A stretch of DNA of 20,067 nt from Pseudomonadota bacterium (GTDB lineage: Bacteria; Bdellovibrionota; Bdellovibrionia; Bdellovibrionales; SG-bin7). The translations under genes and the position numbers were made by a program. The stretch lies in assembly GCA_034439715.1 (NCBI GenBank), contig JAWXAY010000108.1, forward strand, positions 1 to 20,067, in the 5' to 3' direction. The notes beneath the pieces are model-generated. The model made no database searches, was not told where the DNA came from, and was given only the letters and a program-made list of their open reading frames with translations. Shown one piece after another: positions 2,741-19,856 of this stretch. Numbering within the stretch: position 1 is the stretch's first letter; each line of letters begins with the position of its first letter.

Positions 2741-3562
2741 ATGGATTTCTGTTTGATTTCGCAATGCACTAAGCACCTTGAATTTACCAAATTTCGAAAA
2801 TGGCCCAAAAAATTGCCAGCCATTGCCTGGAAAAAACACTTGTTGTGCGCCTTTGATCGGCAAGAGCAACAAGCCGAGGGCCAGGTTGTCACCTTTGAAG
2901 ATGACTTACCTGAACTGTTGAAGTCAATTTATCCCGAGCTGAGTCTTACGGAGTTAGCTCTGCTATTTAAAAAAGCTGGTGATCTTTTTTCTGAAGTCAC
3001 TAAAACTGATGTTCTTAAAACCTATGGATTAAAGGCTAACCAAGACCTTAACTCAGTACTCGAAATTTTGCCTCGCACCCCCAACGAATTTCAAGACTTT
3101 GTTCATCATAAGAAATTGGCCGCACGCGAACTATCCCCACTTCGTGCCGTTTTCAATTTGGCCGAAATCAAAGATTTGCTGATTTCGATAGCCCTTTCAA
3201 CTCTTTCAAAATCGCAAGCCGTGAGCTTGCTCGAAATGGCTATCGAGCTTTATCTCGTGGATCGAAGCCTCACGAAGCTTCTAAAAAATGATAACGAATC
3301 ATCTCATACTTGGTTAGCGAGAATTTCTGCCTTACGTATGCCTCTCACTAAAAAATCAGATCAAGATTTTGCTTTAAAAACTTCGGCGCTCAATTGGCCC
3401 AGCCACGTGAAGGCCGAATGGATTCGTAGCGGCGATCAGTCCGGCTTACAAATTTCGCTTTTTGCCACTTCACAAGCTGACTTTAAAAAAAAGCTATTGG
3501 GAATTAATAAAATAAATGATGAACTGACAATGACACCAGAAAAATTATGGACCAACTCTTAA
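2741..3562 (+). CDS. Hypothetical helical protein (273 aa) coupled to the SPL-like gene
   Basis: Long ORF with normal composition; overlaps the next gene by 16 nt (3547-3562). No catalytic motif recognised. Confidence 0.75.
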   Translation: MDFCLISQCTKHLEFTKFRKWPKKLPAIAWKKHLLCAFDRQEQQAEGQVVTFEDDLPELLKSIYPELSLTELALLFKKAGDLFSEVTKTDVLKTYGLKANQDLNSVLEILPRTPNEFQDFVHHKKLAARELSPLRAVFNLAEIKDLLISIALSTLSKSQAVSLLEMAIELYLVDRSLTKLLKNDNESSHTWLARISALRMPLTKKSDQDFALKTSALNWPSHVKAEWIRSGDQSGLQISLFATSQADFKKKLLGINKINDELTMTPEKLWTNS

Positions 3563-4689
3563 AGAGCTTTACAAAAGTATATATCAGCAAAGACGCGGTC
3601 ACAAGTGACGCGGCTCGGAGATTTTTCGACCTAATTCCGCACGAAAAAATAGCCATTGTTTCTGAACGACCTTATCCCGAAGTGCAAGGTAGTCTGTCGG
3701 CAAGTGAATATGATCGAAGTAAGCGAGAACTTTTTTTAACACACTATCAAGGACAGTTTTTTAAAAAGTGTCCTGGTTTTAAACCAGGGCTGGTCTGTTG
3801 CAACTATTTTGTATTAAACCTGGGTCTACAATGTAATATGAATTGCTCGTATTGCTATTTGCAGTCCTATCTTAATACTCCAGTTACAACTATTTACAGT
3901 AATATCAATGACGCCCTTTCACAACTTGAACTCATCGCCCAAAAGTTTTCCGCGGAATCTTACCGTGTTGGTACGGGTGAAACTGTCGATAGTCTCAGTC
4001 TGGATGAGCTCACTCTATACTCCAGACACTTGATTTCTTTTTTTAATCGCTACCCTAAATGGGAGCTTGAGCTCAAGACCAAATCAAAATCGGTCGATCA
4101 GTTTTTGGATGTTGATCATGTTGGTAACACAGTCATCAGTTGGTCAATAAATCCCGAGCATATTATCAGCCGCGAGGAGCACGGAACCGCGAGCCTTAGC
4201 GAACGCTTTTCTGCCGCACAAAAATGTTTAAATAAAAACTTCAAAGTAAATTTTCACATTGATCCACTGATTTGGCATCCCGAGTGGCAAGACAATTATT
4301 TTGAACTTGTGGATCAAATTACTCGGCGTTTTTCTCCTCAGGATATTCCACATATTTCTTTAGGGGCTCTGCGATTTCAACCTGAACAACGGCACATTAT
4401 GCGCGAACGCTTCGGCATGAAAAGTTATGTTACGCGCGCGGAGGTACACCTTTCGAGTGATGGAAAGCTTCGCTATGACCTCCGGCTCAGAAATGAAATG
4501 TTTACTGCCATTATCAATCGCTTTAAGAGTCAAAACTCCGCTTGGAATGTTATAATGTGCATGGAGACTCCCGAGACCTGGCTTGCTCATCAGGGTATTA
4601 ATCCACGTTCAAATGAAAGCATGAACCCATTATTTAGACCTTTAAAAGGCGAGCAAAAGGTAAGCCATCATACCCATAATCCAAGCTAA
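3547..4689 (+). CDS. Spore photoproduct lyase (SplB)-family radical SAM protein
   Basis: CxxxCxxC followed by YLQ (C96NMNC100SYC103YLQ), plus family-typical segments LKTKS, SWSINPE, EHGTASLSERFSAA, FHIDPLIWHPEW and DGKLRY. Confidence 0.9.
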   Translation: MDQLLKSFTKVYISKDAVTSDAARRFFDLIPHEKIAIVSERPYPEVQGSLSASEYDRSKRELFLTHYQGQFFKKCPGFKPGLVCCNYFVLNLGLQCNMNCSYCYLQSYLNTPVTTIYSNINDALSQLELIAQKFSAESYRVGTGETVDSLSLDELTLYSRHLISFFNRYPKWELELKTKSKSVDQFLDVDHVGNTVISWSINPEHIISREEHGTASLSERFSAAQKCLNKNFKVNFHIDPLIWHPEWQDNYFELVDQITRRFSPQDIPHISLGALRFQPEQRHIMRERFGMKSYVTRAEVHLSSDGKLRYDLRLRNEMFTAIINRFKSQNSAWNVIMCMETPETWLAHQGINPRSNESMNPLFRPLKGEQKVSHHTHNPS

Positions 4690-5623: not shown

Positions 5624-5693
5624 ATTTTTTTAGGGGCGAAAAGTAGACCAATAAACAGTATTGCCAGAGTTACTGGACTTCTGTCCGCAGGAC

Positions 5694-7901
5694 TTAAAAT
5701 CGAACGCTTACGCCTAATCCAATTGTGCTTCCGGAAGTGTCGGTTTGTCTAAAGAAAAGTCCCACTTTGGTCTGAGCGGTAAACTGATATCCCAGTCCCA
5801 CCCCTAGCTCAAACTCAATTTTTTCTTTATAAGAAAACTCCGGCTCAATATCTAAGGTGACTCTATCAATGATAGGAATACTCTTTCGAAGCTTAATTAT
5901 GACTTTACCGTCAGTTCTTACATAACTCAATACTTCCACATTTAAGGGTAATGTGTGTGCAAGGCCAATGAGAGCCGAGAGCTTTTTGTCCTCGTATTCA
6001 GCGCCACCCACCACAGCGGTAAAACGATTTAAGTAGCGCTTAAACAAAACGTCAGCGTTGAGAGTGTCCAGCTTATACTCATCAATTTCAAGATTGAGTT
6101 CTAAGTCCCAACGACCACCGTTAAGTTTAGCTCTGAGTTCACTTCGATTTGAGTACAATTTAACTTCTGCACTAGGATAAAAATCACTATCTTTTATCAT
6201 GTGGGGACCATGGGCTTTTTCTTCGTGCTCTAACTCACCAGGAATTTTGAATCCTTCATACTTTACTAGTCGAGCCATGCCCATCATCATATGGTAGAGG
6301 TTATGACAGTGTAGAAACCAGACGCCTGGTTCATTGGCCCTAAATTCAATTATGACTGTTTGCATAGGGGCGACGTCAACGGTATGAATGTTTGGCGAAT
6401 ACTTATCTTGGCCGTTTAGAATTCTAAAAAAATGGCCATGAAGGTGCATCGGGTGGTGCATCATGGTTTTATTACGCATAGTGAACCGCACGATCTCGTC
6501 ATAGCGAATCATTATATATTTTTCTTCAGAGAACGACTTGCCGTTTATAGTCCAGATAAATCGATTCATATCGCCATCCAGGTCTAAATCGATATTTCTT
6601 CGCGGCAATGAAGCGTCAAATGAGGTGTCAACAGGGGATTTTAACATTTTATAATTGAGCCGATTAGTCATAGGTATCGCCGCTGACATGGGAATTGGCA
6701 TAGGAGAACTGCCGCTAGCAGGAGTATGCCCGCCACCACCATGACCACCACCATGACCACCACCATCAGATTCTCCGCCGCCAGGCTCGCCGTCTCCATC
6801 GCCAGGTTCGCCGTCCCCATCGCCGGGTTCTCCACCACCATGGCCACCACCATGCCCGCCATCATGGCCACCATGATCCATTACATATGGGTTTGGTCGC
6901 AGCTTATCAGGCACTCTTTCACTTTCCTTACCTGCGCCAAACGTAATGCTGGAGTATCCCGTCACATCTTGTGCTGTAGCTCTTAGCTCCACACTTATTT
7001 TTGGGTCCTTGGGCATTTCTAATATAATATCGTATGTCTCGCCAGGTCCCATAAGCAGCTCATTGACCTTCACTGGTACTACATCCACGCCATCTTTAGA
7101 AATAACTGTAAAATTACGGAGCTGGCCAAAGTTGACATAAAAATATGTTGAAGATCCCGCATCAATAAGTCTCAATCTTACTTTCTGACCGGGCAACGCC
7201 TTTGAAAAACTTATGTTCTTTTTTCCATTTACTAGAAACGCATCATACCCCACATCGCTCAGATCCATGGCTCCCATACGAATCCACTCGCTTTTCAAAT
7301 AATCCCAAACAGAACCATGCCGAATGGCCCCAATCCAAGATGGAAAAGACTTTTTCTTAAACGCATAATAGTCGCCATCCATTTTGAGATTCCTTAAGAT
7401 CGTCGTAGGTTTCTCATTACTCCAGTCGCTAAGAACGGCCACAAGGTCGTGATCCGCGTGATTACGATGGGGGTTTTCATCTTCGATTACAATTGCTCCG
7501 TAAAGCCCACTTTGCTCTTGAAGGTCGGTGTGAGAATGGTACCAGTAGGTTCCTGTATGTCTAATTAAAAATCTAAAAGTAAATGTTTCCTTAGGTTTAA
7601 TAAGTTGTGTGTTTGAAAACTCAGGTCCGTCCATATTCCAAGGAACCAAGACGCCGTGCCAGTGCAAAGTTGTGGGCTCGTTTAATTCGTTGGTAACATT
7701 AATTACTGCCATTTCGCCTTTTTTAAATCGCAGTGTCGGTGCAGGTATACTGCCATTGATGGCAAGGGCATGATCGACTTTTACACCCGTAAAATTGACG
7801 GAGAAATTATGTATTTTAAGATTATAAACTCTATCGGTTCTCGCAAAAACAGAGGTACAGAACAAAAAAACAAACGCCCAAGAAATTCGTGATTGCGGCA
7901 T
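5694..7901 (-). CDS. Multicopper oxidase (CopA/PcoA-type, three cupredoxin domains) with a His/Gly/acidic insert and a C-terminal CopB-like beta-barrel
   Basis: All four copper motifs are present: LHWHG, YWYHSH, HHPMHLHGH and HCHNLYHMMMGM (axial Met). Sec-type signal peptide ending VFA|. The last ~163 aa alternate hydrophobic and polar residues and end GLGVSVRF. Confidence 0.95.
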   Translation of the reverse strand: MPQSRISWAFVFLFCTSVFARTDRVYNLKIHNFSVNFTGVKVDHALAINGSIPAPTLRFKKGEMAVINVTNELNEPTTLHWHGVLVPWNMDGPEFSNTQLIKPKETFTFRFLIRHTGTYWYHSHTDLQEQSGLYGAIVIEDENPHRNHADHDLVAVLSDWSNEKPTTILRNLKMDGDYYAFKKKSFPSWIGAIRHGSVWDYLKSEWIRMGAMDLSDVGYDAFLVNGKKNISFSKALPGQKVRLRLIDAGSSTYFYVNFGQLRNFTVISKDGVDVVPVKVNELLMGPGETYDIILEMPKDPKISVELRATAQDVTGYSSITFGAGKESERVPDKLRPNPYVMDHGGHDGGHGGGHGGGEPGDGDGEPGDGDGEPGGGESDGGGHGGGHGGGGHTPASGSSPMPIPMSAAIPMTNRLNYKMLKSPVDTSFDASLPRRNIDLDLDGDMNRFIWTINGKSFSEEKYIMIRYDEIVRFTMRNKTMMHHPMHLHGHFFRILNGQDKYSPNIHTVDVAPMQTVIIEFRANEPGVWFLHCHNLYHMMMGMARLVKYEGFKIPGELEHEEKAHGPHMIKDSDFYPSAEVKLYSNRSELRAKLNGGRWDLELNLEIDEYKLDTLNADVLFKRYLNRFTAVVGGAEYEDKKLSALIGLAHTLPLNVEVLSYVRTDGKVIIKLRKSIPIIDRVTLDIEPEFSYKEKIEFELGVGLGYQFTAQTKVGLFFRQTDTSGSTIGLGVSVRF
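6726..6881 (-). repeat. Coding low-complexity repeat: GGH units, (GEPGDGD)x2.5, GGGH units
   Basis: Encodes MDHGGHDGGHGGGHGGGEPGDGDGEPGDGDGEPGGGESDGGGHGGGHGGGGH; 12-nt units (ccaccaccatgN) and degenerate 21-nt units at 6780-6833. Confidence 0.95.
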
Positions 7902-7953
7902 AGTACTCTCCAGTGGCTAACTTAAGGGAATTACGCGATTTAGTAATCTATTT

Positions 7954-7969
7954 AGCAATTCAGGTGCCA
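7954..7969 (-). promoter_or_regulatory. Sigma54 (RpoN) -24/-12 promoter of the multicopper oxidase
   Basis: Minus strand reads TGGCAC-CTGAA-TTGCT, a perfect match to TGGCAC-N5-TTGCW, 52 nt upstream of the ATG in intergenic DNA. GGAG Shine-Dalgarno precedes the ATG. Confidence 0.85.
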
Positions 7970-8060
7970 AGTGATCTCGCTATCTTTAGGGGAAAGCCTC
8001 AGCTGAATCTTCTATCTTCGCTGCAAATACCTTTATTTTTAAATTTAAATAATTCGATGT

Positions 8061-8083
8061 AATTTCAAGCCTCAATTTGTCAT
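8061..8083. promoter_or_regulatory. Putative activator-binding site, copy 1 (AATTTCAAGCCTCAATTTGTCAT)
   Basis: 19/23 ungapped identity to 19906-19928; both copies lie upstream of a sigma54 promoter in the same orientation. Confidence 0.5.
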
Positions 8084-8233
8084 TTCGAGTGACCTTTTTG
8101 GCCAAAAACACCTGTACAAGATACAATCTGCAATGGGCGAGATTCCGGGTATATATTGTGTTTATTGTGTTTTTTGGTGCTGTATGGTAAGACTACGCGC
8201 GAGTAGATCGTTGTTTTTTTGAGGTCGTTTTGC

Positions 8234-8782
8234 ATGCTTGTAAATTTACATAAATATCTTAAACTGATACCTTTTCTGGCGCTCCTTGTTCTAGCGGTCG
8301 GAATGGGATGTTCTTCTTCTCATGACGAAGACGAGGGGTTTTCTTTAGTAGAACCCCGATTTAAATCCATTACTGAAAATATATTTGTTTCAAAGTGCGT
8401 CCATTGCCATGGCCCTCAAAAAAGCGAGAAGGGTATAGATTTATCGTCATATGAAAAAATATTTTCTGGCGCGGTTTTTCCTCCGCTAATTATTCCCGGA
8501 AATCCAGAAAAAAGCAGTCTATACAAAAGTGTGGCTGAGGGAAAAATGCCAAAAAATGAACCTTCATTGAACAAGAAGGAATTGAAGGCAATTTATAAAT
8601 GGATAAAAAATGGAGCGAAGAAAGAGGAGACGCCAGATTCGGACCCTCTACCTCTGCCGTCACCTACAGAACCCGAAACTGATGAACCAGGGACCGGTAC
8701 AGATGAGCCAGGAAGTAGCACACCAATCGTAGAATCATTTGAAAATAGTCAAAAATTTTTAAGTTTTTTAACCAAACCTTAA
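8234..8782 (+). CDS. Lipoprotein monoheme c-type cytochrome (Planctomycete cytochrome c-like domain)
   Basis: Lipobox-like VGMGC; heme motif CVHCH at 8396-8410; IDLSSYE, IIPGNPEKSSLY, GKMPK (likely axial Met) and IYKWIKNGA; acidic Pro-rich tail. ATG 8234 is preferred over TTG 8219 because GAGG lies 9 nt upstream. Confidence 0.88.
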   Translation: MLVNLHKYLKLIPFLALLVLAVGMGCSSSHDEDEGFSLVEPRFKSITENIFVSKCVHCHGPQKSEKGIDLSSYEKIFSGAVFPPLIIPGNPEKSSLYKSVAEGKMPKNEPSLNKKELKAIYKWIKNGAKKEETPDSDPLPLPSPTEPETDEPGTGTDEPGSSTPIVESFENSQKFLSFLTKP

Positions 8783-8791
8783 GGAGGTTTT

Positions 8792-9088
8792 ATGAGAAAG
8801 AAATTTATAGCATTGTTGCTAACGTCAGCGTTTCCCCTATTGGCATTTGGACATGGTAGCACCATTGATGCTGTCAATGACAGCGTAGTGGCGGTGTTAA
8901 AGACTTTTAAGGAAACTGAAACAGACGCTATTAAGGCTACATTTCGTGGTATAAAAGCGTGGCCAAAGGATGAGATGATTATGGCAAAAATTTATTTGTT
9001 GGAGGGTCAGGTCGAAAAATCCCTTAACTACATGTGCATGATGGATCATACTGGCGAAAATGATAAAATGGCCTGCCAAAAACAATAG
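8792..9088 (+). CDS. Small secreted Met/His/Cys-containing protein, candidate copper-binding protein
   Basis: Strong AAGGAGG Shine-Dalgarno; signal peptide ending AFG|, so the mature protein would start HGST; C-terminal YMCMMDH...MAC. Confidence 0.8.
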   Translation: MRKKFIALLLTSAFPLLAFGHGSTIDAVNDSVVAVLKTFKETETDAIKATFRGIKAWPKDEMIMAKIYLLEGQVEKSLNYMCMMDHTGENDKMACQKQ

Positions 9089-9104
9089 TCTAATTAAATT
9101 TTTT

Positions 9105-9134
9105 AAACTGATACCCTTTGCTGGGTATCAGTTT
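9105..9134. terminator. Probable bidirectional intrinsic terminator
   Basis: Perfect 12-bp inverted repeat AAACTGATACCC-tttgct-GGGTATCAGTTT with A/T-rich flanks, between convergent stops at 9088 and 9151. Confidence 0.8.
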
Positions 9135-9150
9135 TTAAAAAACTACTCGA

Positions 9151-10005
9151 TTAAAAAGTAAAATTCTCTTTTGGAAAAGTCAGCCACGATTCCTTTTTCG
9201 GAAAGCCCTTGGGTCGATCTTCACTACCCCCAATGTCATGAATGTAGGCCGTCAACCCACAAATAAACGCATCAAAAGCTGCGGGCGTCTGAGATAATAC
9301 CTTGATATCCTGGTCATAAACAAAAACCAAACCACTATCGACAATTTTTTTTATAATTTGAAGGCGATTGCTCTCGCCTTCCACTGAATGCTTATGAAAA
9401 TTAAACATCGACTTTGAGATATCCAGCTTTTGACCAATTCGCCACAAAGACAATTCGGGATAAACCTCAATTGTCGGAACCTTTATCCGACGTAAGATAA
9501 ATTGGGCCCGCGAAGCGAGTGGAGCCATGTTAGAGCCCAAGGCTTCAGGCGGATGAAAAGCTTTTTCATATTCAGACGCAACATGTAGTTCGGTACAGCG
9601 CTGAGTATAAGGCACAAACTGGCGCGGAGGTTTTTTTTGCTTTCCATGTTTCTTAAACCAATTCCACATCCACTTTATCTCAGGTTCGCCACACTTTTCA
9701 TAACCCGGGCACTTCAATTCACAAATTATACACTTAGGAAGGGAGAGTGGCGCATCCATGCTCAAAAGATCAATGGGACTTTCGCCTATAGTTAATAGCT
9801 CATGCAAAACCAAATCAGCCGATTTATCTTTTTTACCGCCTAGGCCCAAATGAATTCTACTTAAAAATACTTTCTTGTGTTTGGGATAATATTCTAGAAC
9901 TGCAACAACTGTGTTGTCCGTTTTGGCGCCGCCTAGGTGCAGACCCAAAAACCTTTTGATTAAAAACTCTCGTGGACTAGGGCGATTGATTTTTCTCTTA
10001 GCCAT
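9151..10005 (-). CDS. DUF429-like RNase H-fold protein with a Cys4 insert
   Basis: FLGLHLGG (strand 1), MDAPLSLP, TQRCTE, IEVYPELSL and FDAFICGL follow the DUF429 pattern; overlaps the kinase gene by 8 nt. Confidence 0.75.
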   Translation of the reverse strand: MAKRKINRPSPREFLIKRFLGLHLGGAKTDNTVVAVLEYYPKHKKVFLSRIHLGLGGKKDKSADLVLHELLTIGESPIDLLSMDAPLSLPKCIICELKCPGYEKCGEPEIKWMWNWFKKHGKQKKPPRQFVPYTQRCTELHVASEYEKAFHPPEALGSNMAPLASRAQFILRRIKVPTIEVYPELSLWRIGQKLDISKSMFNFHKHSVEGESNRLQIIKKIVDSGLVFVYDQDIKVLSQTPAAFDAFICGLTAYIHDIGGSEDRPKGFPKKESWLTFPKENFTF

Positions 10006-10993
10006 TGTATATAGACACGTCTAATACTTTCATGCCCTGTTCCTTTAATCTCGCGCTTACTTCTTTCTTTTTCTCTGGTGCCCACACCATCACACAACCG
10101 CCACCGCCTGCGCCGCAGATCTTAATCGCTTCCGCTCCCGACATCAGCGCCAATTTTTCTAGAATTTCTATCTCGGGACTCAAAAAAAGAGGAGTTAATT
10201 CAACTCTAGCCTGATACTCTCTCCTAAAAATATCCGAGAGCTTTTCATAATCTTGATCCAGCAACACAGATCTCAAATCTAATGTCACATCACGAATTTT
10301 TTTTAAAGCAATCAAAGTAGTTTGCTTGCCTTCGACGGCAAGCTTGCAAACTTCAAAATTATTTATCCCGCTATTATGAGGCTTACCCGTATAAACCAAA
10401 ATCGCATTTTCATTAAAAACAGCCTCAGGAAATTTAGAATTTGAAACTTTAAAACCATCATGTGAAAATTCAATGATATTTAATCCTGGAGATATCGCCG
10501 CAACGTAGTCTTGTATCCCAGTAGGAGTCCGCAATATTTCTGCTTCAATATTATGAGCAGCCTCAACCATGGAGTACAAATCAAACTTTCTGTTTATCGC
10601 CTCGGCAAATGTCTTCATGACCGAAATTGAAAGACTTGAACTACCGCCCAGTCCTCCCCCAATGGGACTCTCTGAGCGAGTGGTCAAATTAAAGCCAAAA
10701 GAGGGATTCCAATATTTAATGTGACATTTAAAGAAATTTAAAGCGGGGTCCTTGCTTAAATAGAGCTCTTCGATGGAATCAAACTCTTTTTTAAACTCCT
10801 GATCTTTACTCTCTATTGTTATTTTTTTGTCTTTCCTTTTCTCCAAATCACAATAAGTAAAAACACTTACCGAAACATTAATGGTGGCGCACTGGCCAAC
10901 AAAGGAATGCAGCGGCCAAAGATCCAGTGTTCCTCCAGCTAAATCCACTCGTGTTGCCGATCGCGCTGTATAGCTATTTGCGAAGTTGTTCAC
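9998..10993 (-). CDS. GHMP-family sugar kinase (HddA/heptose-7-phosphate kinase-like group)
   Basis: ATRVDLAGGTLD, PIGGGLGGSSS (ATP-binding loop), TGIQD and KICGAGGGGC; the GTG start overlaps the upstream TGA (GTGA). Confidence 0.9.
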   Translation of the reverse strand: MNNFANSYTARSATRVDLAGGTLDLWPLHSFVGQCATINVSVSVFTYCDLEKRKDKKITIESKDQEFKKEFDSIEELYLSKDPALNFFKCHIKYWNPSFGFNLTTRSESPIGGGLGGSSSLSISVMKTFAEAINRKFDLYSMVEAAHNIEAEILRTPTGIQDYVAAISPGLNIIEFSHDGFKVSNSKFPEAVFNENAILVYTGKPHNSGINNFEVCKLAVEGKQTTLIALKKIRDVTLDLRSVLLDQDYEKLSDIFRREYQARVELTPLFLSPEIEILEKLALMSGAEAIKICGAGGGGCVMVWAPEKKKEVSARLKEQGMKVLDVSIYNG

Positions 10994-12402
10994 AACGTCT
11001 TACCAGGCGCCTCAGGTTCGGGCTTTGGCTCTGATACTAATAGATTTTCACCGGGTATTTCATCGATACGATTGGCTTTGATGGCTAGTACCTCATTACT
11101 TAAGTTAGTTCTCACAAAATAATAGTCATCGCTTCCCTCACGAAATTTCTCGCCCCAAATCACGTCTAAAATCAATTTGCCATTGGCGTCCTTTAACAAG
11201 ATTTGTGCCTTTGGAGGATTCAAACCCCTGGGGCCTACTCCAGCAATAAATCTATCCGCACTTAACTCGCGAATTTTTGATATAAGCTCCTGCGCTTTTA
11301 AAACATCAAGCTCTTTGCCCTTAAATTCCTTTGTTGGCTCCCACTTATTGGCGTCGTTCTGAATCGAAAGGCGAAATTTATTGCGATCCACCTGCACCTG
11401 TTTGATTAGCTTCTCATCAAAGGTAAACGGAAACTTTCTGTCACGAAAATCGCTCAACTCTTTTTTTAAGATTGAAGTTCCCGCCGAAGCAGTTTCGTAA
11501 ATTACTTTTTTGTCGCTCGACATTAAAAAAACTTTGCCCGAGGATTCTTTGGACACAGTGAGGGTTACGTCCTTAGACTTTAGTGAATCCCCTTTTTTAT
11601 CTAAAAAACTAACGGTCAATTTTACCTCAGGCGTTGAAAGCCCAAACTTATTTAATTCTTGAGGCCCCGATGTTTCCGAAACGAACTCTCGTGCCTTAAT
11701 AAATTTTAGTCCATTTGCCATATCGGCAATAGCTGCAGGGTCAAGCTTTAGGTTTTTATCTGCGGGATAAACCCAAACTTCGCCTGATTTTTCAAAAGAG
11801 ATTGGTTTTTTACCTTTCACCTCGAGATTCATAACTGTGGGCTGGATGTTTTCAGGCAAGATGTCTTTACTTCGCAGCTCTTTAACGGGTTTTTCTAACA
11901 AATCTCCAAAATTATTGCTCGCCAGATAAATCTTTGGCCCTCCGTCGACCTTAATATGATAATTTCGCCCGTCAAAACTTTTTTCGCGGCTAATATAAAA
12001 TCGATAGGTCTTTTGTGCGCTCTTTAACTCAATCCATCCTGCGGGATTATCTAAGCCAAATGTTTTAACATCGGGATCGGTCCCATCCTCATTTTTAAGT
12101 TCCGTTTCTTTGTCTCCAATTAGATTTCGAATGGCATTTTCTATATTAAAACGGTCTCCATAGTCTTCAATTGGGGATGTCATCATCCAAATACCATCTT
12201 TTTTAATAAAGCTTTTTTTATCTTTCCCCTTAACGATGTTTAACTCGCTAATATCGCCGTCTTTGACTTCACTCAATAGATTGACGGTGTTGGCCTCCTG
12301 GCCATCTTCCTTTTGCGCTTTTTTAAATTCAAAAAAATAGGTGTAGCTCACCAGTATCACCACGAGGCCCGCAAAAAAATAAGTTGAGCTAAACTTCTTC
12401 AC
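10990..12402 (-). CDS. DUF4340 domain-containing protein (membrane-anchored partner of GldG-like ABC systems)
   Basis: N-terminal transmembrane anchor; three repeats ending FGLDNP, FGLSTP and RGLNPP, with LRSKDIL and FRDRKFP linkers. GTG 12402 is preferred over 12423 (GTGA overlap with the upstream stop, GGAGG 5 nt upstream). Confidence 0.85.
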   Translation of the reverse strand: MKKFSSTYFFAGLVVILVSYTYFFEFKKAQKEDGQEANTVNLLSEVKDGDISELNIVKGKDKKSFIKKDGIWMMTSPIEDYGDRFNIENAIRNLIGDKETELKNEDGTDPDVKTFGLDNPAGWIELKSAQKTYRFYISREKSFDGRNYHIKVDGGPKIYLASNNFGDLLEKPVKELRSKDILPENIQPTVMNLEVKGKKPISFEKSGEVWVYPADKNLKLDPAAIADMANGLKFIKAREFVSETSGPQELNKFGLSTPEVKLTVSFLDKKGDSLKSKDVTLTVSKESSGKVFLMSSDKKVIYETASAGTSILKKELSDFRDRKFPFTFDEKLIKQVQVDRNKFRLSIQNDANKWEPTKEFKGKELDVLKAQELISKIRELSADRFIAGVGPRGLNPPKAQILLKDANGKLILDVIWGEKFREGSDDYYFVRTNLSNEVLAIKANRIDEIPGENLLVSEPKPEPEAPGKTL

Positions 12403-13955
12403 GCGCTCCTCCGCCTCCACCAAATAAGACCGCTGGCGAAAAAGAACAGTATCGCAATTGGAAAAAATATTCCATAGAACATAATGTTCGCTTGCATGCC
12501 AGTAATGGTAAAATTGGATCCCACGGGCGCCTTGGGCCGAATGCTAATAAGATCGGTGTCTTTCATAAGTGCAGCAAACGAATTTAAAACCACGTTTCGA
12601 TTTGCCTCCACACTCTCAAGCCCGCCTCCTATTAAAAACTCAACATCGGCAAATGCGACGATATTAAACTCTTTTAAGGGATTAGCTTTTGAAGCTTCAT
12701 CTAAAAAACCTTTTGAGGACATGACAACCACATGAGGTCCTCGCTCAACTTTTTCTTTGCTGAGATCAATTGTCTGCTCGGGCAATTTAGCAGTAGAAAT
12801 ACTCATTGGTCCCGTTTTAACAAGTTCTTCGACGGTTATTGAGGGAGTTAGCGACGCCGTTTTTTTGAGTGTCGAAGGCATTACAAAAATCATCCGCTCG
12901 TTCTCAGAATCCAAATCTTTGGTAATAGAGTTTGTTTTTGAAAATCCCGCGCCAGCCACATAGGCCATATTTTGGCGCTGACCTAAATCAATAACGTAAT
13001 TTGCAGAAAACTCAATTCCATATTTTTGCAGAAATCCTTTGAGATTATGTTTGTCTTCAGGATTTATAGCAATAAACAAAGACCCACCATTTTTTGTAAA
13101 GTTTGTTAGAAGATTCAACTCCCTTTCAAAAAACTCGCTTTTCGGCCCAATTATGGCAATGACCTTACAGTCATCAGGTAGTTTTTCAAGCTGACCTAAT
13201 GTCAGAGTTTTAATTTCGTAGCCACTATCCTCTAAGGCTTTCTTAAGCGCCGACGTATCGGCTTTGTTGGGTCCTTGGCTTTCGAGTGGAATTTCGCTTT
13301 GTCCCTGAAGGTAATAAAGAACCTTTTTAGGATGAGTAATCGCAATGAGGGAGTTGGTAACACCCTGCTCACTCAGTTCTTGGGCCTTGGCCTTTTGCCC
13401 TTTATAGACTACAAACGCTGCCGCCTGAGGTGTTGTGACACTAAAATCCTTGGCCAGGTTGGGCCAGGCCAAAACGTTTATGGCCTTATAGCTTATGCCA
13501 TTATGTTTATCTTGAAAAAGTTTTACCGTATCACGAAACCGCATTTTATCTTCCATCGCCTGAGGGTTTCGTGGATCAAAAAAAAGCTTAATCTCGATGT
13601 CGTCCTTAATTCCAGCAAGAATTTTGGCAGTTTGATCGGACAAGCTGTTTAGCTTTTCTTTAGTCAAATCAAAAGTCTTATTGTGCCTGACAGCCAAATA
13701 GTTAACTGACCCAACCAATGCGATCGCCAGGAGAATGAGGACACCCATATTCATACCGTGTTTTGTGGTCTTCATCGATAAAAAATCGAGGTAAAATGCC
13801 CTGTCGACAATAAAACTAATGAGAACTAAAATCGGACAAAGAACAATCGGTGCCCAAAGATACTGATGCCAAATGCCTAGCAACATCGTAAAAATTCCGA
13901 TGATTATTAAACAAAATGCGGCCAGTAGTAGTGAGCCAATACTAATACGACTCAT
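12399..13955 (-). CDS. GldG-family ABC transporter accessory protein
   Basis: Three N-terminal hydrophobic segments; VNYLAVRHNKTFDLTKEKLNSLSDQT, YYLQGQSE, IIGPKSEF, GGSLFIAINP and ISIRPK; C-terminal transmembrane helix followed by WWRRR. Confidence 0.9.
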   Translation of the reverse strand: MSRISIGSLLLAAFCLIIIGIFTMLLGIWHQYLWAPIVLCPILVLISFIVDRAFYLDFLSMKTTKHGMNMGVLILLAIALVGSVNYLAVRHNKTFDLTKEKLNSLSDQTAKILAGIKDDIEIKLFFDPRNPQAMEDKMRFRDTVKLFQDKHNGISYKAINVLAWPNLAKDFSVTTPQAAAFVVYKGQKAKAQELSEQGVTNSLIAITHPKKVLYYLQGQSEIPLESQGPNKADTSALKKALEDSGYEIKTLTLGQLEKLPDDCKVIAIIGPKSEFFERELNLLTNFTKNGGSLFIAINPEDKHNLKGFLQKYGIEFSANYVIDLGQRQNMAYVAGAGFSKTNSITKDLDSENERMIFVMPSTLKKTASLTPSITVEELVKTGPMSISTAKLPEQTIDLSKEKVERGPHVVVMSSKGFLDEASKANPLKEFNIVAFADVEFLIGGGLESVEANRNVVLNSFAALMKDTDLISIRPKAPVGSNFTITGMQANIMFYGIFFPIAILFFFASGLIWWRRRSA

Positions 13956-13958
13956 GAC

Positions 13959-14723
13959 TTACCTCCAACGATTCGACTCAACCACGCGTTGAGTGAGAAA
14001 ACAGTTTAAACCAATCACACTCAAGAAAAATACAATTGATGTGATCTTAACTATGCCCTTGGCAAAATTCTTAAAAAAATGTTCGCCAAGTGACAGATGC
14101 TCGAAAACGGCAACCCAAGAAGGGTCTTCCGCGATTTCGGCACCGGCACCCACGAACCAAAAGATCAAGTTAAACAATACTCCTATGATCACGGCCAAAA
14201 ACACCGAACTTGTGAGCGACGAGGCAAACATTCCAATGGCCACATAGGAGGCCACAAGTAGCATGAGACCAACATAGGTGGAGAAAAGCGGTCCCCAAGA
14301 AACCTCACCATAAAACGAGGTCACTAGCGGGTACATAAAGGAAACTCCCACCAAAACCCAAGCGGCCGCTGTTCCAGCAATAAACTTTCCAAGAACAATC
14401 TGAGTGGCATTGATAGGACTTGTCAGCAAGAGATCCATGGTATTGGCCCGCTTCTCCTCTGAAAAAAGCTTCATGGTAATGGCCGGGATTATAAAGAGTA
14501 AAATAAGATTTACAGTCGAGATGTGCATGCTAAAGACCTGATGCAGATTCATATCATGTTGCTGCATCATCATCATCTGTTGACTTTTCTTAATGAAATC
14601 TTTGAGAAAGGTCCCATACCAAACAGTCCAAATAAAAGCACATATTCCTGCCAAAATAAAAAATAGTGAATTAAACGTTAGCGCTCTAAAATCCCGCCAC
14701 GCAATGGTGCAAATGCCTCTCAT
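13959..14723 (-). CDS. ABC-2 type permease, GldF-like
   Basis: About six transmembrane segments; PAITMKLFSEEKRANTMDLLLTSPI...IVLGKF and IGMFASSLT; ATGA overlap with the ATPase gene. Confidence 0.92.
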   Translation of the reverse strand: MRGICTIAWRDFRALTFNSLFFILAGICAFIWTVWYGTFLKDFIKKSQQMMMMQQHDMNLHQVFSMHISTVNLILLFIIPAITMKLFSEEKRANTMDLLLTSPINATQIVLGKFIAGTAAAWVLVGVSFMYPLVTSFYGEVSWGPLFSTYVGLMLLVASYVAIGMFASSLTSSVFLAVIIGVLFNLIFWFVGAGAEIAEDPSWVAVFEHLSLGEHFFKNFAKGIVKITSIVFFLSVIGLNCFLTQRVVESNRWR

Positions 14724-15658
14724 GCTCTGGCTCCTTGTGACGAATCACTTGTTAACTTAATAAATATATCTTCGAGATTTAAATTATTGGCTCTAAATTC
14801 TGTGAGGCCCACTCCCTCATTGACAATGGCAGCTGAGATTTTTTCAAAACATTCCATGTTGGTCGCGTCAATCTCAATCGCCCCGAGTTCTTGTCCCTTA
14901 GAAACACCAACAACACCGACAATGTTTTTAACCATTGAGAGGACTTGGTCGCTGGGTCGTTTTACCTTTACATGAATGTGATAGCCTCCCTGCATTCTTT
15001 GGGATAGCCCCGCCAGCGTGTCCTCAGCCACAATGCGACCATTGTTGATGATAATGATGCGTTGGCAAGTAGCCTGCACTTCAGATAAGATGTGGGTTGA
15101 TAATATAATAGTGTGATGTCCGGCGAGCTCTTGAATGAGGTTTCTAATCTCAGACACTTGTTTTGGATCTAGTCCCACAGTTGGTTCATCGAGAATCAAT
15201 ATTTCAGGATTAGACACAATGGCCTGCGCAATTCCCACCCTCTGTCTAAATCCCTTAGAAAGATTTTGAATCAATCTATCAGCTACACCTTTTAAATTAG
15301 TTTTTTCTATGGCTCGATCTACGTTAGATTGGATTTGGTCGCGCGGTACTTTTTTAAGGTTGGCCACAAATTTTAGATAGTCACGAACAAACATATCACC
15401 ATAAACAGGCGGAAACTCTGGCAGGTATCCAATTTTTTCTTTGACCTCAATAGGATTTTCAAAAACATCATAGCCCGCCACCATCACTGAACCAGAACTT
15501 GGTGCCATGTAACCCGTGATGATCTTCATAGTCGTTGATTTTCCGGCTCCGTTGGGCCCTAGAAATCCAACAACTTCTCCTTTTTTAACAGAAAAACTGA
15601 GTCGATCAATAGCCTTGTGGGGGCCATAATTTTTTGTGAGTTCTCGTACTTCAATCAT
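14720..15658 (-). CDS. ABC transporter ATP-binding protein, GldA-like
   Basis: Walker A GPNGAGKST, signature LSKGFRQR, Walker B ILILDEPT, H-loop STH. ATG 15658 (MIEVRELTK) is preferred over 15691 because AAGGAG lies 6 nt upstream. Confidence 0.95.
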   Translation of the reverse strand: MIEVRELTKNYGPHKAIDRLSFSVKKGEVVGFLGPNGAGKSTTMKIITGYMAPSSGSVMVAGYDVFENPIEVKEKIGYLPEFPPVYGDMFVRDYLKFVANLKKVPRDQIQSNVDRAIEKTNLKGVADRLIQNLSKGFRQRVGIAQAIVSNPEILILDEPTVGLDPKQVSEIRNLIQELAGHHTIILSTHILSEVQATCQRIIIINNGRIVAEDTLAGLSQRMQGGYHIHVKVKRPSDQVLSMVKNIVGVVGVSKGQELGAIEIDATNMECFEKISAAIVNEGVGLTEFRANNLNLEDIFIKLTSDSSQGARA

Positions 15659-15703
15659 GTCACACTCCTTAAGGTCTAAGATTGGCGCCATCGCAAAAAA
15701 TCG

Positions 15704-18454: not shown

Positions 18455-19801
18455 TTACCTCGAAAGATCGTCACCAGTTAAAGCTTTATGCGCCTCATAC
18501 ATGCCCTTAAATTCAGTTTTTTCCGCAAGGCCTGTTAATAGCGTTTTGATTTCTTCAAACTTAGCTTTCGAACCGTCAGGAACTTGAGCTAGCTTTTTTT
18601 CAAGGCCGGGAATAACTTTTTTATTGTTTTGTTCAATGGCAAACTTGAAGCCATCAATTAAAGCTGCTGCCGAAACCTTAATTCCCGGGCTCGGCCTTCC
18701 ATCAACGGTTGAAAACATTAGGGTCCTAAAGAGTTTCCTGTAATGAGAGATTTGCTTCTGAGTGTCGCCATAAACTAATTCCATCTCTTCTTTTAAGAGA
18801 TTTTTGAGTGTCTCATCTGTTTCAAGAATTCCTTCAATCTTAAGTTTAATTTCCGCGAGTGGCACGACTGCCGCCTCCATCTTAGTTAACTGCACAGCGT
18901 AATCTTTACTGTACTTCGACATTCTCTGTAGGCGCTCAAACTCCGTAGTTTCATGGCCGAGAATCTGTACCAATTCCAAAGTAGTTTCTAAAGGATCCGC
19001 CGATGGCTTAAAGGCGTAGGCAATGGCTTTACTACCAGCGCCTTCAGGACTGCTTTCAAGACTCAAAATAAAGTGTGCTTTTCCATCAATTTTTATTTTT
19101 CTTAATTTTGCGGTTGAATAAATATCACTAAAATACTTCAATGCAAAATCATTTCCCTCATTCTTATCAAGAGACAGCTGTTTCAATTCAATACCTTTGC
19201 TTAATATATCATCGTTCAGTTCCTCGTTCCCGAAATTTTTAAGCGAGACAAAGACGTAAGTGTATTTATCATTATTAGTCTTTGAGAAAATCGTAAGGTT
19301 GGCTTCCTTATAGGTTGTATTCCCTGCAACTTCGTGGGCACCAATAAGAATCAAATTTACAGCCCCAATTTTTGAAATGAGATCAGCACTTGTAGTCCAT
19401 TTTAATAAGAGGTCCGAACCCTGATCGCCTAAGGCTTTTACAACTTCATCGCGAAGGGACTTTTCTTCTTTTGTTATGGTACGGGGTTTAACTTTCTCGT
19501 CATTAGGTTTAACATTCCCTTTTTTAGCACCAATCATTTCGGGTGTTACATCGGGTGCCGGAGTTTCGACTTCTTCGTCTTTTTTAGGTTCGTCTTTACT
19601 TTCTGCCTTTTCTTCTGCATCTTTTTCTGCTTTCTTTTTGGCATCAATTAAAGCTTTAGCTTTTTCTTTATCTGTAAAATCGGCTCTGTCGGACCGCTTA
19701 AGACGATTTCGATCGTTTCTCTTTCCGCAAGAGGCAAGTAGTGAAAATGCTATTAGCGAAAAAAACAAAGTTTTTGTTAGTACGTTTAATTTAACAAACA
19801 T
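18455..19801 (-). CDS. Hypothetical lipoprotein (448 aa)
   Basis: Canonical lipobox LASC; Lys/Glu-rich linker; helical C-terminal third; AAGGAG Shine-Dalgarno. Confidence 0.85.
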   Translation of the reverse strand: MFVKLNVLTKTLFFSLIAFSLLASCGKRNDRNRLKRSDRADFTDKEKAKALIDAKKKAEKDAEEKAESKDEPKKDEEVETPAPDVTPEMIGAKKGNVKPNDEKVKPRTITKEEKSLRDEVVKALGDQGSDLLLKWTTSADLISKIGAVNLILIGAHEVAGNTTYKEANLTIFSKTNNDKYTYVFVSLKNFGNEELNDDILSKGIELKQLSLDKNEGNDFALKYFSDIYSTAKLRKIKIDGKAHFILSLESSPEGAGSKAIAYAFKPSADPLETTLELVQILGHETTEFERLQRMSKYSKDYAVQLTKMEAAVVPLAEIKLKIEGILETDETLKNLLKEEMELVYGDTQKQISHYRKLFRTLMFSTVDGRPSPGIKVSAAALIDGFKFAIEQNNKKVIPGLEKKLAQVPDGSKAKFEEIKTLLTGLAEKTEFKGMYEAHKALTGDDLSR

Positions 19802-19840: not shown

Positions 19841-19856
19841 AGCAAACAAAGTGCCA
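19841..19856 (-). promoter_or_regulatory. Sigma54 (RpoN) -24/-12 promoter of the lipoprotein pair
   Basis: Minus strand reads TGGCAC-TTTGT-TTGCT, a perfect consensus match, 39 nt upstream of ATG 19801. Confidence 0.85.

Follow-up and report, generated by a model that had tools for sequence, protein, structure and literature searches.

Whether three neighbouring genes for exported proteins form one dedicated redox machine, or parts that travel separately and often meet, is the question raised by positions 5694-9088 of the DNA analysed here (the window: 20,067 nucleotides (nt) of contig JAWXAY010000108.1, assembly GCA_034439715.1, from lineage SG-bin7 of the Bdellovibrionales, phylum Bdellovibrionota). 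An earlier note on this DNA had read the genes as one unit, in which a barrel-fused multicopper oxidase, a lipoprotein cytochrome and a small protein act together under sigma54. The three open reading frames (ORFs) are present where that note placed them, and the divergent gap (about 330 nt in that note, 332 nt as measured), the sigma54 consensus and the terminator hairpin were borne out as well. The genes and the gap are as follows, with protein lengths in amino acids (aa).

5694-7901, minus strand: three-domain multicopper oxidase of the CopA/PcoA type with a fused CopB/PcoB-like barrel (735 aa; Pfam)
7902-8233, no strand: divergent intergenic region, with no CsoR-type operator in the window copy
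8234-8782, plus strand: monohaem PSCyt1-type c-cytochrome lipoprotein with an acidic Glu-Pro tail (182 aa; PF07635)
8792-9088, plus strand: small exported protein, 78 aa when mature, with a predicted cystatin-like alpha+beta fold (98 aa; AlphaFold)

We lean towards reading the locus as an envelope Cu(I)-detoxification system built of two separately mobile modules, the fused oxidase on one hand and a cassette of cytochrome and small-protein genes on the other, and not as a dedicated three-part redox machine; copper is likely its theme. What recurs is a genuine association, but one of two modules that join and separate: the trio occurs far above chance, yet most loci of the fused oxidase have no small gene nearby, and the cassette is also found with other oxidases or with no oxidase. 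Across 401 genomes of the phylum we found 98 fused-oxidase places and dropped three partial rows; a small-protein gene lay within 9.5 kilobases (kb) of 13 of the remaining 95, compared with 0.2 expected by chance, and both families were present in 21 genomes, compared with 10.1 expected, counts that are descriptive since kin are not independent. The neighbourhood co-occurrence that the earlier note had proposed to check therefore holds in that the trio recurs, in two or more orders, but fails as a rule, with 82 of the 95 fused-oxidase places lacking a small gene nearby. The small gene was likewise not found in 63 of 84 fusion-bearing genomes, with at most 12 candidates scored per genome, nor in any of 20 further fused-oxidase loci read directly, four of which had one short flank.

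We also read the surroundings of the small-protein gene, at 45 of 64 places in the order (weak matches and several tandem-domain copies were skipped) and at the best-scoring 20 of 36 places outside it. A cytochrome gene was no more than 350 nt away from the small gene in 22/45 loci of the order and 14/20 loci of other orders, giving 36 cassettes in 65 loci. Within 7 kb of these 36 cassettes, a barrel-fused oxidase was present in 13, a multicopper oxidase of any type in 19, and a copper or heavy-metal marker (oxidase, P1B-ATPase, CsoR, MerR or resistance-nodulation-division (RND) pump) in 26. The idea that a single oxidase clade owns the cassette was rejected, as the cassette label did not cluster on a quick tree of 51 oxidases, changing 11 times against a shuffled mean of 11.7 among rows that selection had enriched for cassette loci. 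Moreover, the source genome holds a second cassette (contig C7, L031:1186-4319; handles beginning with L, C and G are our own for loci, contigs and genomes), and the 14 kb read around it contain no oxidase. It belongs to a same-strand run of csoR, two unnamed exported proteins, cytochrome, small protein and a small lipoprotein, headed by a CsoR-type box and set among csoR, merR, merT/merP and czc-type genes. With the cassette scattered over the oxidase tree and this second copy standing free of an oxidase, the dedicated three-gene unit of the earlier proposal was not upheld: the cassette often accompanies the fused oxidase but is not an obligatory part of it.

In the window itself, the three genes occupy their site as a single inserted block between housekeeping genes, because both flanking housekeeping genes adjoin directly, 57 nt apart, in a genome of the same family (G002); in another genome (G003) one unrelated gene lies between the same two. 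The GC content of the three inserted genes is close to that of the flanks. Contigs of other public sequencing runs cover the oxidase-barrel junction (5733-6549) and positions 7842-10500 with zero differences, and the fusion and the gene order are therefore not assembly artefacts. The relatives named in the analysis belong to Bdellovibrionales and Bacteriovoracaceae, in keeping with a source in Bdellovibrionota.

Two parts of the oxidase gene matter for what its product may do.

5697-6179, minus strand: predicted 12-stranded outer-membrane barrel, residues about 575-735, with Phe at the end (AlphaFold, fold match)
6681-6875, minus strand: disordered insert rich in His, Gly, Asp and Glu between oxidase domains 2 and 3 (predicted local distance difference test, pLDDT, below 50)

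The protein matches Pfam Cu-oxidase_3, Cu-oxidase and Cu-oxidase_2, carries a Sec-type signal without a twin arginine, and has as its best NCBIfam match TIGR01480 (copper resistance CopA; 374 bits, below the cut-off of 479). Each of the 12 copper ligands is in place (H80, H82, H122, H124, H483, H486, H488, H531, C532, H533, H537 and M542), and the ligands of the type 1, 2 and 3 (T1, T2 and T3) coppers are invariant in 22/22 aligned fused oxidases, so that with its three domains the oxidase is complete, as had been claimed. The AlphaFold model of the fused protein (pLDDT 83, predicted template modelling score 0.83) consists of oxidase, disordered insert and barrel; the insert comprises model residues 322-386, has 7 His, and is variable among relatives, mostly His-rich. 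The terminal beta-barrel described before appears in this model as 12 strands at the C-terminus, with PcoB as its top structural match (7PGE; Z 17.8, root-mean-square deviation (rmsd) 2.9 Å over 162 residues). Because the margin over other 12-strand porins is small (Z 14.7-15.8; NanC 15.8, KdgM 15.5), the fold alone is not decisive for a PcoB identity. A profile of 110 such barrels, however, aligned with an annotated Acinetobacter CopB (hhalign 91.5%, expectation value (E) 8.7e-7); Pfam CopB scores of three relatives were 25.9-27.2 bits (cut-off 27), with one of the three passing, and the window copy alone gave no Pfam CopB match. On sequence and model together, the window oxidase is a CopA-CopB fusion.

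Such barrel-oxidase fusions are common in the phylum: the C-terminal part of the fused oxidase was matched in 87/401 genomes (E <=1e-30), and the source genome has a second fused copy on contig C24. A barrel-only search of plasmids found nothing. The earlier note had presented the barrel-fused oxidase as part of a candidate new module, but the fusion is not new, since a passage of PMC11213822 already mentions this architecture; we found no experimental study of the fusion in the literature searched, which included few subscription journals and no supplements.

The cytochrome gene most likely starts at ATG 8234 and not at TTG 8219, because a GAGGT lies 8 nt upstream of the ATG and the Atlas record begins there, which sets the divergent gap at 7902-8233. 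Its product scores 39.8 bits against PF07635 (PSCyt1; cut-off 22) and has a single CxxCH. The Cys of lipoprotein type after a hydrophobic stretch, the CxxCH and a Met-Pro are invariant in 15/15 homologues, in agreement with the lipid-anchored CxxCH cytochrome described earlier, and from these residues the protein would be lipid-anchored with a His/Met-ligated haem. The closest solved sequence to its haem domain is FoxE (E 3e-15), an Fe(II)-oxidising dihaem protein both of whose domains match. Other PSCyt1 paralogues occur in the source genome in unrelated settings.

For the small protein, a profile search returned 115 representatives at E <=0.001, of which 107 rows were aligned; eight rows that were long, repeated or spurious were left out, as was P0001, in place of which the mature sequence from the window was used. 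The predicted mature part begins at a His, with the cleavage site placed by motif; the 78-aa mature protein with N-terminal His thus stands for the window copy but not as a family rule, His1 being present in 73/107 rows. No Pfam family was common to more than 3 of the 107 members, and none of them matched Pfam CopC. The AlphaFold model (pLDDT 96) has one 19-residue helix, a short helix and four antiparallel strands, and the fold search ranked highest a designed protein with a cystatin fold (Z 8.9, rmsd 2.0 Å, 69 residues); natural proteins reached Z <=6.1 and share a common arrangement only. YebY and CopC were absent among the fold matches listed, a match to a CopC chain at E 1.6 is at noise level, Foldseek gave no match at E <=0.001, a word-index search returned only the protein itself, and the Atlas held no usable match. 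Judged by the model, the fold is cystatin-like and not that of CopC. A pair of cysteines, Cys62 and Cys75, is almost invariant (106 and 105 of 107 rows) and probably forms a disulfide, and some His lies within the Cys loop in 79/106 rows. From the strand order, and not from coordinates, the N-terminus is expected at one end of the molecule, together with the Trp37 turn and the Cys loop. The family occurs in 56/384 genomes of the order and, at a stricter threshold, in 48/401 genomes of the phylum. Together with the cassette it is apparently undescribed, no description of either having been found in the literature searched.

One branch of the family lacks His1 and adjoins two-domain multicopper oxidases and an unnamed exported protein of 550-600 aa. 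This larger protein, which has no Pfam match, is found in 16/65 loci (L042:1810-3636, L101-L104, L112-L115, L117, L123, L169, L172, L173 and L177), often under a CsoR-type box and typically beside a two-domain multicopper oxidase and a His1-less small protein. Elsewhere the small protein occurs as a tandem two-domain form with a His-rich N-terminus (L106:8873-9517, L107:9388-10032), in a gene run that holds putative metal ATP-binding cassette (ABC) transporter genes, named by sequence appearance. In 5/65 loci a barrel-like protein with an N-terminal CxxCH, a Cyc2-like layout, lies near the small gene together with a YceI gene (L033:3203-4944, L092:3873-5611, L125, L130 and L162).

How these genes are controlled bears on whether they belong together. 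Two further features are concerned.

7955-7969, minus strand: sigma54 -24/-12 consensus, an exact match 68 nt before the oxidase start
9099-9140, no strand: bidirectional terminator-like hairpin shared with the convergent gene (-20.4 kcal/mol, z -7.5)

The exact site before the oxidase gene makes sigma54 control of that gene plausible, and to this extent the earlier proposal stands; the site is one-directional, it precedes 0/21 other fused oxidases and, with one mismatch allowed, 1/13 other cassettes, so that sigma54 is not the general regulator of the trio. The count of sites alone is weak evidence, as 19/100 shuffles gave at least two matches at one mismatch. The source genome has 21 exact matches, 15 of them intergenic, and encodes an RpoN-box protein; a sigma54 enhancer-binding activator was found in none of the 17 window proteins scanned and was not sought elsewhere. 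A scan for sigma70 promoters was at chance level (10 found, 8.8 expected).

The cassettes of relatives carry a different signal. A conserved palindrome lies on the 5' side of the cassette in 7/22 cases in the order and 7/14 in other orders, 14/36 in total; the pattern had been settled before the other-order set was read. One further site, downstream of its cassette (L167), was not counted. The background in the source genome is 2 sites in 3.26 Mb, or 0.0017 per 2.7 kb. In L094 and L171, the latter with the window gene order, the fused oxidase and the cassette diverge around one shared box. The regulators encoded in cassette loci carry Tyr-Cys and His-x3-Cys, which we take to be the Cu(I) ligands of CsoR. 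The palindrome also precedes csoR genes in cassette loci, and it fits the type 2 CsoR operator, the consensus of which is given for Streptomyces lividans in a passage of PMC3902906. By co-location and operator, the cassette belongs to a CsoR-type metal regulon in many relatives. As the earlier note had said, no copC/copD, Cu-ATPase, cus or regulator gene is adjacent in the window, none being present among the 17 proteins scanned; other contigs of the source genome hold a CsoR-family gene, a P1B-type ATPase and CusA-like genes.

The strong terminator described before closes the cytochrome and small-protein side of the locus, where the hairpin at 9099-9140 was missed by a terminator scan, but not the oxidase side, where the one stretch tested, 5640-5696, folds no better than shuffles (z -1.1). 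The arms of the hairpin match the two ends of a non-coding element of about 200 nt with terminal inverted repeats, which has several copies in the genome, also at contig ends (C16:39440-39637, C110:11040-11240 and C29:59900-60098). Its 16-nt repeat end occurs in 16 copies with at most one mismatch, and a 15-of-16 match to it falls in the signal-peptide codons of the cytochrome (window 8260-8275). From its sequence, the hairpin looks like a collapsed footprint of a miniature inverted-repeat transposable element that serves as a terminator. A 22-of-25-nt repeat flanking the cassette, which arose in 0/60 resamples, was rejected as a target-site duplication because one side is this genome-wide repeat end.

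Combining these results with what is known of PcoA/CopA and PcoB, the two-module reading can be laid out as a sequence of steps. The fusion would be exported by Sec, with its barrel in the outer membrane and the oxidase hanging in the periplasm at the barrel mouth. By analogy with PcoA/CopA, the oxidase would oxidise Cu(I) to Cu(II) with O2 and, by analogy with PcoB, the barrel would let Cu(II) cross the outer membrane; passages of PMC9210255 and PMC12509749 disagree on the direction of flux through PcoB. The small protein, for its part, may collect periplasmic copper at the end where, by strand order, His1, Trp37, Met64 and His66 should meet, and may dock on the lipid-anchored cytochrome. Complex prediction weakly supports this docking: the cytochrome/small-protein pair scored 0.57 against 0.00 for the best control, with runs at 0.57, 0.21 and 0.63, at least 0% of contacts agreeing between runs, and a partner pLDDT of at least 87. 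The mark was reached by 116/157 solved and 2/215 mismatched pairs, with only 18 of those solved pairs and both mismatches at 0.60 or below. A further step, in which the haem would accept the electron of Cu(I) and so provide another path of oxidation next to the oxidase or pump that a given cell has, is one we consider doubtful.

Several observations weigh against this two-module copper reading. The window copy lacks the CsoR-type box, its best weight-matrix score of -9.7 ranking 14,957 in the genome. Proteins of the CsoR/RcnR family can sense metals other than copper, and the metal islands that house cassettes also hold MerR, MerT/MerP and Czc-type genes. Among the 65 small-protein loci, 29 have no adjacent cytochrome, some on short contigs, and 10 of the 36 cassettes have no metal marker within 7 kb, several of these with full flanks (L090 and L118 among them). 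The proposed ligands are partly conserved: besides His1, Trp37 is found in 88, Met64 in 28 and His66 in 40 of the 107 rows. Finally, the charge of the whole barrel of the window copy is balanced (22 basic and 22 acidic residues), whereas a passage of PMC9210255 describes the PcoB pore as strongly electronegative; one Glu of the barrel is shared by at least 90% of 16 aligned rows.

A parallel arrangement was observed beside the cassette. In the same slot after csoR, an exported protein of about 190 aa stands beside a PSCyt1 lipoprotein (L036:11456-12773, L194:12440-13737, L195:12206-13499, L197:5001-6420 and L201-L230); it was found in 51/301 genomes, with the cytochrome adjacent in 24/30 loci read, and in none of the 4 genomes of the source organism's family. 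Of the 24 adjacent cytochromes, 17 are dihaem and 7 monohaem. The possibility that the 190-aa protein consists of two copies of the small domain matched one-to-one to two haems found no support, as hhalign probabilities were below 7%, the halves showed no significant alignment, and 7/24 cytochromes are monohaem.

A bolder form of the copper reading would make the cassette an undescribed haem-based route of Cu(I) oxidation, in which a carrier of new fold delivers to the cytochrome, no O2 is needed at the site, and the pair plugs into various oxidases or pumps, with the parallel cassette filling the same slot; we regard this as unlikely.

We consider it improbable that the cassette is instead a general metal-buffering or envelope-protection pair, which handles other soft metals or shields haem and thiol chemistry from copper and rides metal islands with no catalytic link to copper. 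The variability of the small-protein ligands would suit such a role, as would the tandem His-rich form before putative metal ABC transporter genes (L106, L107) and the existence of cassettes without metal genes. Copper is known to harm periplasmic c-cytochrome assembly (PMC4600104), and a precedent is YebY, which is small, carries a disulfide and is encoded in a copper operon, yet binds the metal only weakly (PMC8689200). Set against this, the conservation of the cytochrome and its invariant Met implies a role in electron transfer, and the His1-less branch lies beside two-domain multicopper oxidases, again pointing to copper.

The dedicated three-part machine, in which the small protein loads copper into an oxidase exported by Sec and electrons pass between the cytochrome and the T1 copper, all under a sigma54 promoter, also has poor prospects. 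It draws on the fused oxidase near 13/36 cassettes, the oxidases of any type near 19/36, the entry of the trio into the window site as one block, the divergent layout around a shared box in L094 and L171, and a co-oriented layout in L162, L166, L167 and L174; in addition, an oxidase without a twin-arginine translocation (Tat) signal would have to be metallated in the periplasm. Yet the small gene is missing near most fused oxidases and from most fusion genomes, as counted above, the label does not cluster on the oxidase tree, 17/36 cassettes have no oxidase within 7 kb, and the sigma54 site is private to the window copy and one-directional.

Oxidation of Fe(II) or Mn(II) at the envelope, with the barrel admitting the metal and the oxidase or a FoxE-like cytochrome oxidising it, is very unlikely: the FoxE relationship, the CxxCH-barrel proteins in 5/65 loci, the presence of the organism's DNA in microbial-mat metagenomes and a role of the PcoAB porin-oxidase in Fe(II) oxidation proposed without experiment (in a passage of PMC5566968) speak for it, but the operators and neighbouring genes are typical of regulons for metal efflux, PSCyt1 domains are widespread, with paralogues of the source genome in unrelated settings, and Pfam and NCBIfam scans showed no iron-uptake or extracellular electron-transfer genes in the window.

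Elsewhere in the window, a spore photoproduct lyase-like radical S-adenosylmethionine gene (3547-4689; Pfam SPL 119 bits) occurs in this non-sporulating lineage and adjoins a 316-aa gene, an adjacency conserved in G003. Positions 10990-15691 hold a GldA/GldF/GldG-like ABC transporter set together with a DUF4340 gene; genes for a GHMP kinase and a DUF429 protein come next. Another exact match to the sigma54 consensus (19842-19856, minus strand) lies 55 nt before a 448-aa lipoprotein-like ORF (18455-19801).

The two-module locus gives an initial outline of how Bdellovibrio-like bacteria may handle copper in the envelope, a subject on which we found no study in the literature searched. The box upstream of many cassettes fits the type 2 consensus, as in the Streptomyces lividans CsoR regulon; the difference is that here exported redox proteins of Gram-negative predators are concerned and that the window copy has no box. 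With the cassette, CsoR-type regulons gain a cytochrome and a new family of small proteins. Relative to FoxE, the window cytochrome is a monohaem lipoprotein in a metal-efflux context and not in an iron-oxidation operon. The small protein resembles CopC/PcoC in being small, exported, His-initiated and encoded in a copper locus, but CopC has an all-beta fold, whereas the small protein is modelled as a long helix on a four-stranded meander, with a conserved Cys pair and no Pfam CopC match. For the cytochrome, a precedent of cluster context exists in Cupriavidus, whose cop cluster encodes the putative cytochromes CopJ and CopT (in a passage of PMC12029693); the window cytochrome is a lipoprotein of PSCyt1 type, paired with an unnamed small protein. 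CopJ and CopT are still labelled putative, and the cassette pair is small and soluble enough to assay.

The oxidase module stands closest to PcoA/PcoB (E. coli pco, Caulobacter pcoAB) and CopA/CopB (Pseudomonas cop), with the same three-domain oxidase and all ligands, 37-39% identity to plasmid PcoA/CopA over the N-terminal part, and a 12-stranded barrel homologous to CopB/PcoB. It departs from PcoA+PcoB and CopA+CopB in being one chain with a Sec-type signal and no CopC/CopD or CopRS nearby, and from PcoB in that the barrel has no disordered N-terminal region of the PcoB kind; a His-rich insert lies inside the oxidase. The different architecture that the earlier note had seen thus survives in the barrel-tethered oxidase, as opposed to the separate-gene cop/pco layout, but not in a dedicated trio. 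The same fusion, three Cu-oxidase domains followed by a C-terminal porin-like region resembling PcoB, occurs in Bacteroidota: it is mentioned for Bizionia argentinensis (G2EDV6) in a passage of PMC11213822, and a Pontibacter plasmid protein matches the barrel profile (E 7e-31 in a 3-sequence search), with no cytochrome/small-protein cassette among its 10 annotated neighbours. Transfer of Cu(II) from the oxidase to a PcoB-type pore is an interaction that has only been proposed (in a passage of PMC12509749), and the fusion, as a natural one-chain PcoA-PcoB, allows this handover and the disputed direction of PcoB flux to be tested directly.

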